Shown here: one piece after another, positions 3,521 through 21,740 of the stretch
How the letters are laid out: each line of letters opens with the position of its first letter
Numbering within the stretch: the first letter of the stretch is position 1
NCBI GenBank assembly: GCA_021778515.1
Contig: JAJYCJ010000005.1
Location: forward strand, 1,341 to 65,340
DNA: 64,000 bases
Reading direction: 5' to 3'
From: Acidobacteriota bacterium
GTDB lineage: Bacteria; Acidobacteriota; UBA4820; DSQY01
Position numbers and translations under genes: made by a program
The notes under the pieces: generated by a model
Seen by the model: only the letters and a program-made list of their open reading frames with translations
Database searches by the model: none
Told to the model about the DNA's origin: nothing

Positions 3521-5291
3521 ACCGTTCGTCGATCACCCGCCGCTTGACCTTCAGGGTGGGCGTCAGCTCCCCCTCCTCCTGGCTGAGCTCCCTGGGCAGC
3601 AGTTTGCAGCGCTTCACCTGCTCGTAGCGAGAAAGGTCGGCGTTGGCTCGTTCGATGACGTGGCCGAACAGGTGCTTTACCACCGGCTCCTCCACCAGGT
3701 CCCGCGGGTCGATCTTGTGCACGCCCTTGGAGCGGGCGTAGTCGATGACGTTGTCCCAGTTGGGAACGATCAGGGCGGTGATGTACGGGCGCCGATCGCC
3801 GATCAGGACGGCCTGCGAGACGTACTTGTTCATCTTGAGCAGGTTCTCGATGGGTTGCGGCGCCACGTTCTTGCCACCCGCCGTGACGATGAGCTCCTTC
3901 TTCCGGTCCGTGATGAATAGGTAGCCGTCCTCGTCGAGGCGGGCGATGTCGCCCGTGGCGAACCAGCCGTCCTCCGTGAGCACCTCGCGCGTTTCCGCCG
4001 GCATCTTGTAATAGCCGCTCATCACATTGGGGCCCCGCACCCAGAGCTCTCCGTCCTCGGCGATGCGGACCTCCACGTTGGTGAGGGCGCGCCCGGGCGA
4101 GCCGAAGCGGATCTGGTCGGTGCCGTCGGCATCCACCTCGTTCACGGTGACGACTGGCGTCGTCTCCGTCAGGCCGTAGCCCTCGGCGATGGGGAGGCCG
4201 CAGCCGTAAAAGAACACCGCGAGGTGCCGAGGGAGCGGGGCTCCGCCCGAGACGAAGAAGCGGATCCGCCCGCCGACCTTCTCCCGCAGCTTCTTCGCCA
4301 GGATCTTGTCGGCGATGGACCTTTTGAAGGCCAACCCGGCCGGGACCTTCCCGGCCTTCTTCGCTTCGGCCCACGCGCTCAGGGTGTCCATGCTCCAATG
4401 GATGAGGCCCTTCTTGATGCGGGAGGAGTGAGCGGCCTGCTCCATGAGGCGCGCGTAGACCTTCTCGTAGAGGCGAGGAACGGCCGCCATGACCGTGGGC
4501 TTCACCTCGGCCAGGTTCTCGGCGACCTTGTCGATGCTCTCCGCGTAGGCGATGCTCATTCCCTTCCAGAAGAAGCAGTAGTCGATCATGCGCTCGAAGG
4601 AGTGGCTGAGCGGAAGGAAGACGAGGGCCCGGTCGTTCTGGTCGATGGCCAGGTACTCCATCCCCGCGCGGCAGTTCTCCACGAAGCATTTGTGTTCGAG
4701 CAGGACGCCCTTCGGCACGCCCGTGGTTCCAGAGGTGTAGATGATCGTCGCCAGGTCTTCCGGCTTCACGGTCCCTGCCACCCTGCGGTGCGCCCCCGGG
4801 TTCTTGGCCGCGAAGTCCTGTCCCCACTGAAGGATGGTGTCCCAGGGGAGCAGCTCGCCCGGCCCCTTCGGAGGGGGATCCATGATCACGATGTTCCGAA
4901 GGCGCTTGAGCGAGTCTTTCTGGGAGAGGAGTTTGTTGGCCTGGTCCTCGCTGGAGACGATCGCCACCTCGGCGTCCGAGTTCGCCACGATGTAGGCGCT
5001 CTCGACCGCGTTCAGCGTGGCGTAGAGGGGCACGTTGACCGCCGCGGCGGTGAGGATGGCGTAGTCGGCCATGAGCCACTTGGGGCGGTCCTCCGAGATC
5101 AGGGCCACCTTGTCCCCCGGCTTCACCCCCAGGGCGATGAGGCCGCAGGAGAACCGCTCCACCGTCCGGGCCACCTCCTCGGAGGAAACCACCTCCCAAA
5201 GCCCCTTCTTCTTGCGCATCAGGAGGTCCGGCCTTTTCAGGTTGTCCACGGTGTTGAAATACAGGTCACACAGGGTCCGAATTTCCGCCAT
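3459..5291 (-). CDS. Long-chain fatty-acid--CoA ligase (AMP-dependent synthetase/ligase, FadD-like)
   Basis: AMP-binding motif IIYTSGTTGVPKGV, ..GYGLTETT.. and ..TGDIARLDEDGYLFITDRKKELI.. Start taken at MAEIRTL (ATG at complement 5289-5291). Confidence 0.85.
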   Translation of the reverse strand: MAEIRTLCDLYFNTVDNLKRPDLLMRKKKGLWEVVSSEEVARTVERFSCGLIALGVKPGDKVALISEDRPKWLMADYAILTAAAVNVPLYATLNAVESAYIVANSDAEVAIVSSEDQANKLLSQKDSLKRLRNIVIMDPPPKGPGELLPWDTILQWGQDFAAKNPGAHRRVAGTVKPEDLATIIYTSGTTGVPKGVLLEHKCFVENCRAGMEYLAIDQNDRALVFLPLSHSFERMIDYCFFWKGMSIAYAESIDKVAENLAEVKPTVMAAVPRLYEKVYARLMEQAAHSSRIKKGLIHWSMDTLSAWAEAKKAGKVPAGLAFKRSIADKILAKKLREKVGGRIRFFVSGGAPLPRHLAVFFYGCGLPIAEGYGLTETTPVVTVNEVDADGTDQIRFGSPGRALTNVEVRIAEDGELWVRGPNVMSGYYKMPAETREVLTEDGWFATGDIARLDEDGYLFITDRKKELIVTAGGKNVAPQPIENLLKMNKYVSQAVLIGDRRPYITALIVPNWDNVIDYARSKGVHKIDPRDLVEEPVVKHLFGHVIERANADLSRYEQVKRCKLLPRELSQEEGELTPTLKVKRRVIDERYAHLIEELYAANGNHEERCD

Positions 5292-5944: not shown

Positions 5945-7110
5945 AGGCCCCACCGTTCCAGCCCCTTGGCGGCTCCGCCCAGGATGGCCCCCAAGAAGAA
6001 TCGCAACAGCGCATTGACGGGAGCCATGGGGCTCCTGGGCACGGGCCCCGCGGCATCCACCTTCATGCCGCCGCCTCCCAGCCGGACCTCGAGCGGGGCC
6101 CGGATCATCAGCCAGGCCGCGTTGAGTCCCAGCGCGATGAGGAAGAAGAGGAGCACGCCCACTACCGCCAGGACGCGCACCACGACCCAGCGTCCCTGGC
6201 CCTGCGCGAGCTCCTGGCCGGCGCTGACGGCGCCGGCGATGACCGAGAGGAACTGGCCGACAAAAAAGCCCAGGCCCGCGGTCATGACGAGGCCGGCCAG
6301 GACCGCGTAGTCCCTGCGGAAGGGGAGGTGGCCCGACACCCATCGCCCTCCCACCTCTTCGATAGTCACGGTGTAGAACTGGCCGCCGTAACGGAAGGTC
6401 AGGGTCTGAACCGGAATGTAGAGAAGGGTCGTCTGGAGCTGCATGACCTTGAGCTCGCCCGCCGCCGATTGGACGGCCTTCACGCCGATATCGAGGATCC
6501 TCTCGATAGGAATGTCCACGTCCACCACCTCGCCCTGGCCCGCCAGCTCCTCGATATCGGCCGGGACCGCACGGTCCAGGCTCTCCTTCACAGCGTCCCG
6601 GAGGTCCACGTCCAAGAGGTCCCAGTTGGAGAGGGCTGCCGCGGGGTACAGGTAACGGAAGTCGCCCAGGATCACGCGGCTGTCCTCCTCCACGCGGACC
6701 TCGGTCTTCTGTCGTTGGAAGGTGCGCTGATACGGCCCGCGGAGGGCGGCCGCGTCCAGTCTGGGAAGGCCGGCCCCGGGCTCTTGCACAATCCTCTCCC
6801 TGCCGGTGGCCAGCACGCCGCCCCTCTTGCCGGTGAGGAGATAGAAGGGGAGATAGCTCCTCTGCCGCCTCACGAGGAGAGCCCTGCGGCTGAGGTCCGA
6901 GGGGAGCCAGCGGCCGCGCAGCAGATCCCGCGCCGCGGCCTGCAGGTCCTGCTCGCTCATGGAAGGCGGGAGCAGGTATCGCGGGAGAAAGCCCGGTTCA
7001 CGGTAGAAGAGCGGCTTGCCGCAGAATTCGCAGATGGTCTTTCGGGCGGCCAGCGGCGGGCCGACCGTTCCCCCGCACGCGGGGCAGCTCAGCGCCCTTG
7101 GTCCGCTCAT
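5941..7110 (-). CDS. Zn-ribbon membrane protein, paralog 2 (function unknown)
   Basis: Start MSGPRALSCPACGG..ICEFCGK (C-x2-C-x15-C-x2-C) at complement 7108-7110. ..SYLPFYLLTGKRGG.. motif. Two to three C-terminal TM helices. ATGA overlaps on both sides. Confidence 0.55.
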   Translation of the reverse strand: MSGPRALSCPACGGTVGPPLAARKTICEFCGKPLFYREPGFLPRYLLPPSMSEQDLQAAARDLLRGRWLPSDLSRRALLVRRQRSYLPFYLLTGKRGGVLATGRERIVQEPGAGLPRLDAAALRGPYQRTFQRQKTEVRVEEDSRVILGDFRYLYPAAALSNWDLLDVDLRDAVKESLDRAVPADIEELAGQGEVVDVDIPIERILDIGVKAVQSAAGELKVMQLQTTLLYIPVQTLTFRYGGQFYTVTIEEVGGRWVSGHLPFRRDYAVLAGLVMTAGLGFFVGQFLSVIAGAVSAGQELAQGQGRWVVVRVLAVVGVLLFFLIALGLNAAWLMIRAPLEVRLGGGGMKVDAAGPVPRSPMAPVNALLRFFLGAILGGAAKGLERWGL

Positions 7111-7902: not shown

Positions 7903-9309
7903 TTACCGCCCCTTCCGTCTTCCTTCCAGCACCCCGGCCAGCCTCCGCGGCAGGTCGTAGAAACTCCCGCTGGAAAAGAAGGCCACGAGATCCCCGCCCC
8001 TCAGCCGGCCGGCGAACCACTCCAGGTACTCCTCCGGCGAGGCCATGACCTCGGCCTCCTTTCCCGCCGACCTCAGCGCGGAGGCCACGAGGACGAGGTC
8101 GAGCCGCTCCTCCGCGGGGATCTTCCCCGGGCCCGGCATGGGACCGAGAAGGACGGCCTGGGCCAGCGGAAAGGCCATGGGCAGGGAATCCTGATGCTGC
8201 CGGGTCTGGCACGTGAAGGAGCGGGGTTCGAAACAGGCCACGATGCGGCGGCCCGGGTAACGCTGGGCCAGTGCGGCGAGCGTCTCGCGGATGGCCGTCG
8301 GGTGATGCGCGAAGTCATCCACGATGGTGATTCCGCCGCCGTCGAACACCACCTCCTGCCGACGGCGGACCCCCGGGAAACCGGCTAGCGCCTCGCGCAA
8401 TGCCTCCAGTGGGGCGCCGGCCTCCAGGCAGGCCGCGAGCGCGGCGATGGAGTTCCTGAGGTTGTGGGCGCCGCTCAGGGGGCTGGCGAATGGGCCCAGC
8501 CGCACTCCCGCTCGGACCAGGACGAATCGCGCGCCCGCCGGAGTGAAGGCCACCTCGTCCGCGGTCCACTCCTCCCTTCCGGAGAGGCCGAAGCTCTGTG
8601 CCCGCCGCCCCGCCAGGGGCGCGAGCTTCCTCACCGAGGGGCTCTCCACGCCGAGGAGGACCAGTCCCTCCGGGCGCACCGCGCCGAAGAGGCGCACGAA
8701 GGCCGTTTCGAGCTCGCCCAGGGTCTTGAAATTGTCCAGGTGGTCCATCTCGATGTTATTCACGATCAGGAGGCTGGGAGCGTAATGCAGAAACTTGGGT
8801 CCCTTGTCGAAGTAGGCCGTCTCGTACTCGTCGCCCTCGAGGACGGTCCACTCTCCTCCGCCCCAGAGGAAGGAACTCTCCAGGCCCTTCACGACGCCGC
8901 CCACGATGAGGTTGGGCGCGAGTCCGGCCCTCTCCAGAAGGTAGCCGCAGAGGGCCGTGGTGGTCGTCTTGCCGTGGGTGCCCGCCACCACGAGGCTCCT
9001 GCGCCCCTGCACCGCGAAGCGCCCGATCGCCTCGGCCATGGAGAGATAGTCGATGCCCTCATCCACCGCGGCCCGCGCTTCAGAGTTGTCCGAGTGAATC
9101 GCGTTGCCGATGATCACGAGATCCGGCCTCGGATTCAGGTGTGCCGGATCAAACCCCAGGGCCACGGGGATGCCGTAGCGCGCCACCATCTCGCTCATGG
9201 GCGGGTAGAGGGCCGTGTCGCAACCCGTCACCTCGTGTCCCTGCGCCTTCAGGAGGCCCGCGAGAGCCCCCATCCCCGTGCCGCCCACGGCCATCATGTG
9301 AATCCTCAT
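7903..9309 (-). CDS. mpl: UDP-N-acetylmuramate:L-alanyl-gamma-D-glutamyl-meso-diaminopimelate ligase (Mpl) / MurC family
   Basis: Starts MRIHMMAVGGTGMGALAGLL. Mur ligase motifs GTHGKTTTT and ..IVNNIEMDHLD.. are present. ATG at complement 9307-9309. Confidence 0.8.
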   Translation of the reverse strand: MRIHMMAVGGTGMGALAGLLKAQGHEVTGCDTALYPPMSEMVARYGIPVALGFDPAHLNPRPDLVIIGNAIHSDNSEARAAVDEGIDYLSMAEAIGRFAVQGRRSLVVAGTHGKTTTTALCGYLLERAGLAPNLIVGGVVKGLESSFLWGGGEWTVLEGDEYETAYFDKGPKFLHYAPSLLIVNNIEMDHLDNFKTLGELETAFVRLFGAVRPEGLVLLGVESPSVRKLAPLAGRRAQSFGLSGREEWTADEVAFTPAGARFVLVRAGVRLGPFASPLSGAHNLRNSIAALAACLEAGAPLEALREALAGFPGVRRRQEVVFDGGGITIVDDFAHHPTAIRETLAALAQRYPGRRIVACFEPRSFTCQTRQHQDSLPMAFPLAQAVLLGPMPGPGKIPAEERLDLVLVASALRSAGKEAEVMASPEEYLEWFAGRLRGGDLVAFFSSGSFYDLPRRLAGVLEGRRKGR

Positions 9310-20729: not shown

Positions 20730-20797
20730 GTCTTCGTAATCTCGACCGATGCACAGGGGCGGCCTCCGGGCCGCCCCTCTTCGTCACCCCTCCAAAG

Positions 20798-20948
20798 CTG
20801 TCACCCTGAGGCCCCCCCCAGAGGGCTCCCCTGGAAGGGTCTCAGGCGTGGGCCTGGAGTAACGCCGGTGGGCTCCGGGGCCGTTGGGCGCACTCCCGCG
20901 CCTGAGATCCCTCGGGGGCTCTGCTTCGAAGGAGCCCTCAGGATGACG
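20798..20948. mobile_element. MITE/REP-like element copy 1 (~151 bp) with imperfect terminal inverted repeats
   Basis: tgtcaccctgagg...cctcaggatgacg. About 85% identical to the copy at 21369-21521. Internal inverted repeat gtctcaggcg / cgcctgagatc. Confidence 0.6.
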
Positions 20949-20976
20949 ACGACGACGCGGCGAGGGTGGTTCGTTG

Positions 20977-21294
20977 TCAGTGGGGCGGCAGCGTCCGCTC
21001 ACTCCTCAGGTCCGGCGTGAGATCGCTCCAGCCGGGATTCACCGATTCCACGAGGGCGATCTTGCGTGCTCTCAACCAACCCTTGATCTGCTTCTCACGG
21101 GCGATGGCTCCCAAAGCTCTCTCGCCGACCTCGTAGTAGACTAGTTTCTTCACGTTGTAACGGGAGGTGAACCCATCCTGCTTTCCTCGCCGGTGCTCCT
21201 CCATCCTCCGGATGAGATCGGAGGTCACGCCCACGTACAGCGTCTTGGTGCGGCTAGGCAGGATGTACACGAAGAACAGCTTCTTTCGCGCCAT
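20977..21294 (-). CDS. GIY-YIG nuclease superfamily protein (UPF0213/YhbQ-like)
   Basis: ..KLFFVYILPSRTKTLYVGVTSDLIRRMEEHRRGK..RYNVKKLVYYE.. matches the GIY-YIG motif. Local GC (~56%) is clearly below the surrounding ~68%. Flanked by two copies of a 150-bp repeat. Confidence 0.75.
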   Translation of the reverse strand: MARKKLFFVYILPSRTKTLYVGVTSDLIRRMEEHRRGKQDGFTSRYNVKKLVYYEVGERALGAIAREKQIKGWLRARKIALVESVNPGWSDLTPDLRSERTLPPH

Positions 21295-21368
21295 GATTCA
21301 CGCTTTCATCCTTTTCGCCTTCGGTCTCGTTCACGGTGCGGCCAGTCAAGCCCCCACCCTCCCCATAG

Positions 21369-21521
21369 CTGTCACCCTGAGGGCACCCCCAGAGGGCTCC
21401 CCTGGAAGGGTCTCAGGGGTGGGCCTGGAGGAACCCCAGTGAGGGCTCCGCTGACGTTTTGCCTGGTCCCGCGCCTGAGATCCTTCAGGGGCTCCGCTGC
21501 GAAGGGGCCTTCAGGATGACG
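21369..21521. mobile_element. MITE/REP-like element copy 2 (~153 bp)
   Basis: Same termini as copy 1 (ctgtcaccctgagg ... cttcaggatgacg) and the same internal palindromic structure. Same orientation, on the other side of the GIY-YIG gene. Confidence 0.6.
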
Positions 21522-21740
21522 GGAAAGCGGGGGGCGGATCTCCTTGACAAGTCGCGGGGGGGGGTAGCCTTGAGCCACCTTGACAGGAGGTGTTCGATGT
21601 GTACGATCCTCTTCCTCATTACGGTCCTGGTCTGTTCTCCTTCCGGCGGCGTTGTCTGGGGCACGACGAGCTGAGCGGCACCGGGGCCCGAAGCCCGGGG
21701 ATGCCCTGGCTGGGCCTCCCTGGGCCTCCCCCCTTCCGTG

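Follow-up and report, generated by a model that had tools for sequence, protein, structure and literature searches.

A probable Ssn-type GIY-YIG nuclease and its flanking hairpin repeats in an Acidobacteriota genome

The 64-kb stretch of DNA analysed here (the window) stems from a metagenome-assembled genome (MAG) of an Acidobacteriota bacterium, and near-identical contigs carry the same locus. Our subject is a small gene for a GIY-YIG nuclease, referred to as ssn, and the two repeats of about 150 bp between which it is located. A preliminary description of this DNA had taken the arrangement for a small mobile or horizontally acquired cassette. Our analysis very probably places it elsewhere: the locus combines a nuclease of the Ssn family with its cognate hairpin units and, by analogy, would act on single-stranded DNA (ssDNA) and cut just outside each element. 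As judged from its sequence, it is not a new cassette but a divergent Acidobacteriota member of the published Ssn/SRM system.

SsnA (NMV_0044) of Neisseria meningitidis, a 94-aa single-domain GIY-YIG protein assigned to CDD cd10448, founded the Ssn family, whose nucleases cut ssDNA at specific sites (Chenal et al. 2025, Nat Commun, PMC11893778). Genes of this family typically have their cognate hairpin repeats, the SRMs (Ssn-related motifs), on their flanks (PMC11893778). SsnA binds a hairpin repeat named NTS, CGTCATTCCCGCGMAVGCGGGAATCYRG, which includes dRS3; it recognises the repeat as ssDNA only and on just one strand, with the cut placed a few nucleotides upstream of it (PMC11893778). Within NTS, the GTC ahead of the stem is required for cleavage and the C after the stem for binding (PMC11893778). 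The protein does not bind RNA and reduces transformation by NTS-bearing DNA; ssDNA cleavage is the only tested activity of the family (PMC11893778). With a degenerate pattern, the SRM pattern, a repeat was found near 71% of the homologs and on both sides in 42% (PMC11893778). The corresponding features of the window are the following.

20977–21294, minus strand: ssn-family gene, 105 aa, single-domain GIY-YIG nuclease (open reading frame, Pfam, homology to SsnA)
20798–20948, no strand assigned: element copy A, a ~150-bp head-to-head dimer of two SRM-like hairpin units (direct repeat, long-hairpin fold, covariance model at 143.7 bits)
21369–21521, no strand assigned: element copy B, with the dimer architecture of copy A (covariance model at 157.8 bits)
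20799–20841, plus strand: unit A1, tag TGTC, stem ACCCT...AGGGT, then C (unit-pattern match)
20906–20948, minus strand: unit A2, tag CGTC, stem ATCCT...GGGAT with a closing T·G wobble, then C (sequence and alignment to copy B)
21370–21412, plus strand: unit B1, tag TGTC, stem ACCCT...AGGGT, then C (unit-pattern match)
21479–21521, minus strand: unit B2, tag CGTC, stem ATCCT...AGGAT, then C (unit-pattern match)

The open reading frame between the two copies indeed encodes a GIY-YIG protein of 105 aa, which matches Pfam PF01541 as its one domain (E 2e-13). The SsnA homolog of Neisseria gonorrhoeae is 53% identical to it over residues 9–96 (E 5e-30), and Y10, Y20 and E67 of the window protein align with the N. 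meningitidis SsnA residues Y6, Y17 and E64. These three positions are invariant in alignments of 11 and 34 sequences. The numbering of the N. gonorrhoeae homolog reproduces the published Y6/Y17/E64, and its gene is flanked by NTS repeats that fit the published motif. The label 'YhbQ-like', which the protein had been given initially, is an approximation only: the UPF0213 structures 1zg2 and 1ywl, the sole solved relatives detectable by sequence, match at profile E-values of 1.6e-7 and 1.6e-4, against the 53% identity to the SsnA homolog. Close to the C-terminus, window-like homologs carry a motif of the type KGWLRxKK (KGWLRARK in the window protein) and proteobacterial homologs one of the type KKWNRxWK, which suggests that two protein–repeat flavours may exist.

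Copy A is located 3' of the gene, 28 nt past the stop codon, and copy B 5' of it, 74 nt ahead of the start codon. Both have the same orientation, and the previously reported identity of about 85% falls within the range found: the repeat search returned an ungapped block of 84 nt at 89% identity (20787–20870 versus 21358–21441) and a second one of 79 nt at 81% (20870–20948 versus 21443–21521), separated by a 2-nt indel, and the mean column identity in the alignment is 88%. The ends are inverted, as had been claimed. The left ends read GTCACCCTGAGG (at 20800 and 21371) and the right ends CCTCAGGATGAC or CTTCAGGATGAC; the right end of copy A is GTCATCCTGAGG on the minus strand at 20936–20947, and its counterpart in copy B is GTCATCCTGAAG at 21508–21519. 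A covariance model (R1, from alignment A4) built on eight orthologous and paralogous element copies and run with filters off identified copies A and B as the sole copies within the window, at 144 and 158 bits with the next best hit at 15.7. A candidate third copy at about 44.5 kb was discarded, as its near-matches to the 12-mer fall inside an ABC-permease open reading frame and represent chance.

All four units share the anatomy (C/T)GTC, A(T/C)CCT...(A/G)GG(A/G)T and a following C. In unit A1 the arm-internal C:G pair is self-consistent, and the opposite arm has T:A; unit A2 misses the unit pattern by a change of GAAGGAT to GAGGGAT. Each 150-bp element is thus a head-to-head dimer, and whichever strand is read, the element begins at its 5' end with one unit in the correct orientation. 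To describe the copies as direct repeats bounding the gene is correct but misses this symmetry, as each repeat is itself an inverted dimer of two units.

The same terminal motif occurs far beyond the window. A scan of species-representative genomes for GTCAYCCTGARG, followed after 105–135 nt by CYTCAGGRTGAC, returned at least 120 stretches, and the matches listed come from Bradyrhizobium and Xanthobacteraceae, Acidobacteriota, Myxococcales, Bacteroidota, Chloroflexia, Armatimonadetes, Gemmatimonadales and Phycisphaerales. Among these listed matches, 122 elements follow a nested plan with the outer motif GTCAYCCTGAGG / CCTCAGGRTGAC, a variable small hairpin, the inner motif GAAGGRT(C/G) / (G/C)AYCCTTC and a variable centre. 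The terminal inverted repeat reaches 2 nt past the 12-mer and therefore spans 14 bp, and 114 of 121 elements lack a target-site duplication. A GIY-YIG homolog is present in three of 120 loci; in two of the loci, namely L117 and the Chitinophagales locus L025, elements lie to either side of the gene as in the window.

These elements also indicate which structure is conserved. In 214 of 230 arms, the variable base of GTCAYCC has its Watson-Crick partner inside the same arm. Watson-Crick pairing between the two arms is seen in only 58 of 122 elements, the other 64 being T/C heterodimers, as are both copies in the window. Because the pairing holds within arms and not between them, the unit hairpin and not the long hairpin is the conserved structure, and we rejected the 150-nt hairpin as the functional unit; in a comparison of close copies, double changes affect only 3 of 50 pairs of the long hairpin. 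The long-range inverted repeat of the preliminary description can nevertheless fold. Each copy forms one long imperfect hairpin with a predicted RNA folding energy of −86 to −92 kcal/mol (z −3.6 to −5.4), and none of 200 shuffled sequences was equally stable; folding under DNA parameters gives a less pronounced signal (z −1.05 to −3.3).

Such stable predicted RNA folds, with z down to −5.4, and the position of the elements in the 5' and 3' flanks of the gene would also be compatible with structured RNAs that act on transcripts, for example as regulators in untranslated regions, small RNAs, or terminator or stabiliser hairpins. We regard this as very improbable. When the window, the locus, 20 homolog loci and one Bacteroidota locus were compared to Rfam, no family matched even at E-values up to 10, apart from microRNA-like noise at E 0.01 or above, and no signature of an intrinsic terminator was found. 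A 'COG2827 RNA motif' (Weinberg 2017) was also considered and dropped, as it is absent from the main text of that paper and no Rfam model matched. In addition, the conservation is strand-symmetric and is kept across phyla as sequence rather than through compensatory pairs, the covariation favours short arm hairpins that are present on both strands, and SsnA does not bind RNA (PMC11893778).

The link between gene and repeat is not restricted to the window. Homologs of the protein form at least 7,991 clusters at E-values below 1e-5. We examined 80 independent metagenomic loci with homologs 48–61% identical to the window protein, in which the terminal 12-mer of the window was counted with up to one mismatch, 'near' being defined as within 400 nt of the gene. 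Of the 80 loci, 50 had it upstream of the gene and 46 had it downstream, with 35 carrying it on both sides, at a density of 2.32 per kb near the gene compared to 0.10 per kb farther off (about 22-fold). The unit pattern was present on both sides in 47 of the 80 loci (3.26 versus 0.081 per kb). This pattern was written after these data had been seen, so that the 12-mer count is the independent test of linkage. The repeats had initially been called REP- or MITE-like (repetitive extragenic palindrome; miniature inverted-repeat transposable element), which is borne out, with the addition that the repeats are specifically linked to this gene.

In the commonest layout, TGTCATCCTGAG, a small hairpin (often GCGAAGC) and GAAGGATC precede the gene, and the reverse complement of these arms follows it; the arms around the gene are complementary over 25–41 nt, including locus-specific sequence. 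Flanking on both sides as in the window was also seen in L210, L220, L117, L025, L213 and L217. The same flanking, with lineage-specific repeats, occurs in annotated replicons of Planktothrix, Spirosoma, Azospirillum lipoferum, Rhizobium, Novosphingobium, Sinorhizobium and Neisseria gonorrhoeae. The homolog of Azospirillum lipoferum 4B is located with its repeats between sufB and sufC (L215, 1489–1782), that of Planktothrix between an MmeI-type restriction-modification gene and DISARM drmA (L213, 1504–1788).

A gene placed between two hairpin arms, as in many homolog loci, could also result if a repeat that was already present had been invaded by a free-standing homing endonuclease of the GIY-YIG type, given that GIY-YIG domains are frequent among homing endonucleases. 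This explanation is hardly credible here: the protein has a single domain and no DNA-binding module, the family cuts ssDNA and not double-stranded DNA (PMC11893778), and the window gene is flanked by two complete elements, none of which is split.

Three observations were made in passing on these loci. Gene calls of homologs (P0053, P0108, P0079 and the open reading frames of L168 and L202) often extend into the repeats, where spurious tails or heads such as ILRFAQDD, SFAALRMT and CHPERSEGS are translated repeat termini. One locus (L167) contains two identical matches to the Acido-Lenti-1 RNA (RF01687) at 7975–8020 and 8165–8210 on the minus strand, 190 nt apart and about 3.7 kb downstream of the ssn homolog. 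Alpha-proteobacteria including Bradyrhizobium and Xanthobacteraceae (L010–L129; for example L016, L029 and L031) harbour many GTCAYCCTGAGG...CCTCAGGRTGAC dimers that have no ssn gene in their vicinity; among these alpha-proteobacteria only L129 has a homolog, located about 6 kb from the element and with no flanking repeat on its visible side.

The history of the locus could be followed in related genomes. Relatives without ssn were found with the neighbouring PilZ response regulator as query; the TPR-rich C-terminus of the neighbouring cyclase, tried as an alternative query, gave one unrelated match only. The loci compare as follows.

Window, this MAG: cyclase/PKD junction with ssn and one element per side
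L210, GCA_027388725.1 (protein 92% identical): junction with ssn, two full copies plus partial copies per side
L220, GCA_049591295.1: junction with ssn and one element per side
L222, GCA_053498015.1: ssn absent; a single remnant of 114 nt at the same junctions, 54–62% identical, with mutated termini (GTCCTC..., ...GTAACAC)
L226, ENA contig ERZ27236874:k141_751226: ssn absent; nothing but a terminal remnant, about 35 nt long
L223, JGI metagenome 3300047584: lacks the cyclase's C-terminal portion, ssn and the PKD gene
L224 and L225, distant relatives: lack the entire cyclase/ssn/PKD block

In total, L210 holds four full and about four partial element copies. As the same insertion site is occupied in three species, with remnants in two more, residence of the module predates their divergence. 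The comparison shows the module to be old at its site, with a repeat number that varies; it has been lost at least twice, leaving decaying repeats behind. None of the relatives carries the gene without the repeats.

This record bears directly on the cassette proposed initially, that is, a recently acquired and currently mobile element–gene–element unit, like an insertion sequence or a MITE, with the GIY-YIG protein as its transposase. Several features fit such a cassette, namely the insertion-sequence-like architecture with its 14-bp terminal inverted repeat, the perfectly complementary arms of 25–41 nt around the gene in many homolog loci, the placement of homologs between the Azospirillum genes sufB and sufC and within a Planktothrix defence island, and the variation of copy number between sister species. 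The authors of the Ssn study themselves liken NTS-ssnA-NTS to an insertion sequence, to IS200/IS605 and to REP/BIME, and propose domestication (PMC11893778). We nevertheless consider a mobile cassette unlikely. The site is shared by three species, and the ssn-less relatives L222 and L226 hold decayed or deleted remnants, contrary to what a recent cassette would leave. Further, there is no target-site duplication, the 64 kb contain just two copies, both at the gene, and the activity tested in the family is ssDNA cleavage, with no strand transfer shown (PMC11893778). Nor does base composition indicate a recent acquisition. The GC content of the gene is indeed below background, at 59.7% (rather than the roughly 56% given earlier) compared to 66.7% for the window, and just 4% of the 318-nt windows are equally low; however, at third codon positions the gene, with 0.80, is host-like (0.81–0.87 in the neighbouring genes), and low GC was therefore discarded as evidence of horizontal transfer.

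The surroundings of ssn revealed some further details. The cyclase/AAA/TPR gene, ssn and the 1,900-aa PKD/SBBP gene act as a block (L223, 10931–12066; L224, 10726–10822), which is truncated or absent in a relative of 90% identity and absent in distant Acidobacteriota, where the PilZ regulator abuts an SMC-like gene. In L210 (about 6310–6330), the ssn stop codon (TGA) is located within the terminal motif of the downstream unit (GGTTATCCTGAAG), and gene and repeat overlap. Divergent from ssn, a small open reading frame at 21597–21674 on the plus strand encodes a hydrophobic 25-aa peptide, MCTILFLITVLVCSPSGGVVWGTTS. Its ribosome-binding site (GGAGGTG) is strong, and its start is overlapped by a match to a sigma-70-like promoter at 21580–21607. 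L220 and L221 have the peptide in conserved form (MGTILFLITVLVCSPSGGVVWGTTN), and none was found in L210. Between its promoter region and element B runs a homopolymer G/C tract of 9 nt in the window (21557–21565) and of 13 nt in the L220 ortholog (about 4718–4730), which could be prone to slippage.

Some observations weigh against assigning the locus to the Ssn systems. The stems are broken by insertions of about 30 nt, and isolated units fold weakly with DNA parameters (z +0.5 to −1.9). The published SRM pattern, HGTCWYN(0-2)YYVSBRHN(0-5)WNVSBRGN(0-2)RNCYNB, matches nothing in the window and, at all 80 homolog loci, nothing close to the gene. The window protein has no match in NCBIfam or PADLOC, and its membership of CDD cd10448 was judged through homology to SsnA. 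With two copies per 64 kb, a large population of the repeat in the genome is also unproven. As to the SRM pattern, it does match the controls from Neisseria, Azospirillum and Rhizobium, and it is a search tool and not the definition of the Ssn family. Since it gives no match here, the window repeat is SRM-like by its anatomy and not by the published consensus, and on its sequence we regard it as a divergent repeat class.

By analogy to SsnA of N. meningitidis, the window protein would bind the units only when the DNA is single-stranded, a state that arises in replication, in repair or when transforming or conjugating DNA is taken up. Its cut would then fall just outside the element, a few nucleotides 5' of the tag. 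Such an activity might serve to restrict or trim incoming ssDNA, to control recombination or to propagate the repeats. A more speculative extension, to which we give only limited credence, is that KGWLR-type Ssn proteins and GTCAYCCTGAG-type dimers form a distinct subfamily that spans phyla and escapes the published SRM consensus, in which the nuclease still drives copying or excision of the repeat. Cuts outside both ends of a dimer, one per strand, would then release a foldback ssDNA.

Taken alone, the locus adds one divergent nuclease–repeat pair to a family with thousands of members. Its repeat, however, points to a large and mostly non-proteobacterial class that the published SRM pattern misses, found next to 50–54 of the 80 sampled homologs per side; its terminal inverted 12-mers, spaced as in the elements, recur across genomes from at least eight phyla. 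It also connects the Ssn system with the CGTC-tagged REP superfamily, which was reported in 2013 without an associated enzyme. The five related Acidobacteriota loci form a natural series: an expanded array and the 1+1 arrangement are found in it, as are a solo copy in decay and a terminal remnant. Such a series can help to address whether the nuclease is what the repeats depend on. Each new pair of an Ssn protein and its repeat is, moreover, a candidate sequence-specific ssDNA cutter for biotechnology. Should the KGWLR subfamily hold true, 'orphan' CGTC-tagged REPs, including the abundant repeats of Bradyrhizobium and Xanthobacteraceae, would gain their missing enzyme, and a mechanism of mobilisation by a GIY-YIG nuclease acting on ssDNA would emerge.

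Compared to the Ssn/SRM systems already described, the window shares the single-domain GIY-YIG protein of about 95–105 aa with 53% identity and the catalytic Tyr/Tyr/Glu, and a gene with hairpin repeats to either side, each composed of an HGTC tag, a stem that opens with A and a C directly behind it. It differs in its repeat, GTCAYCCTGAG...GAAGGRTC, which falls outside the published SRM pattern, in stems with insertions of about 30 nt, and in the fusion of the units into 150-bp head-to-head dimers. Further differences are the C-terminal KGWLRxRK in place of KKWNRxWK and the Acidobacteriota host.

The second related group is the 'CGTC-tagged' REP superfamily, whose members carry the tag CGTC, TGTC or CCTC and a stem beginning with AT and mostly form head-to-head dimers (Di Nocera et al. 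2013, BMC Genomics, PMC3733652). They occur in alpha-proteobacteria, Neisseria (dRS3), Bacteroidetes and others, include the repeats of Bradyrhizobium, Azospirillum and Sinorhizobium, and were not associated with a transposase or any other enzyme (PMC3733652). The main text of the Ssn paper (PMC11893778) does not mention this work, and a literature search for GIY-YIG proteins linked to REP, MITE, terminal inverted repeats, RAYT or the 12-mers gave nothing relevant besides the Ssn paper. The window repeats resemble this superfamily in the terminal CGTC/TGTC tag, the stem opening with A(T/C) and the head-to-head dimer. In contrast to the classical stem of 8–9 bp with a loop of 4–5 nt and a CCA tail, the window units are longer, interrupted and devoid of the CCA tail, and an ssn gene sits between such repeats in the window and in annotated replicons.

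REP/REPIN-RAYT systems (REPtrons) and IS200/IS605 likewise have a nuclease gene flanked by palindromic repeats that are recognised as ssDNA hairpins, together with inverted dimers, a gene that is usually single-copy and vertically kept, and no target-site duplication. The window encodes a GIY-YIG protein and not an HUH/Y1 transposase and has no known strand transfer, which makes this an analogy and not membership. With MITEs and insertion sequences the elements share a terminal inverted repeat, here of 14 bp, while target-site duplication and transposase are absent. Finally, UPF0213/YhbQ and eukaryotic Slx1 (1zg2, 1ywl) show the same minimal GIY-YIG fold with no extra domains; UPF0213/YhbQ is distant (profile E 1.6e-7), and the C-terminal REKQIKGW...NP.W.DL is specific to the Ssn-like group, to which the window protein very probably belongs.

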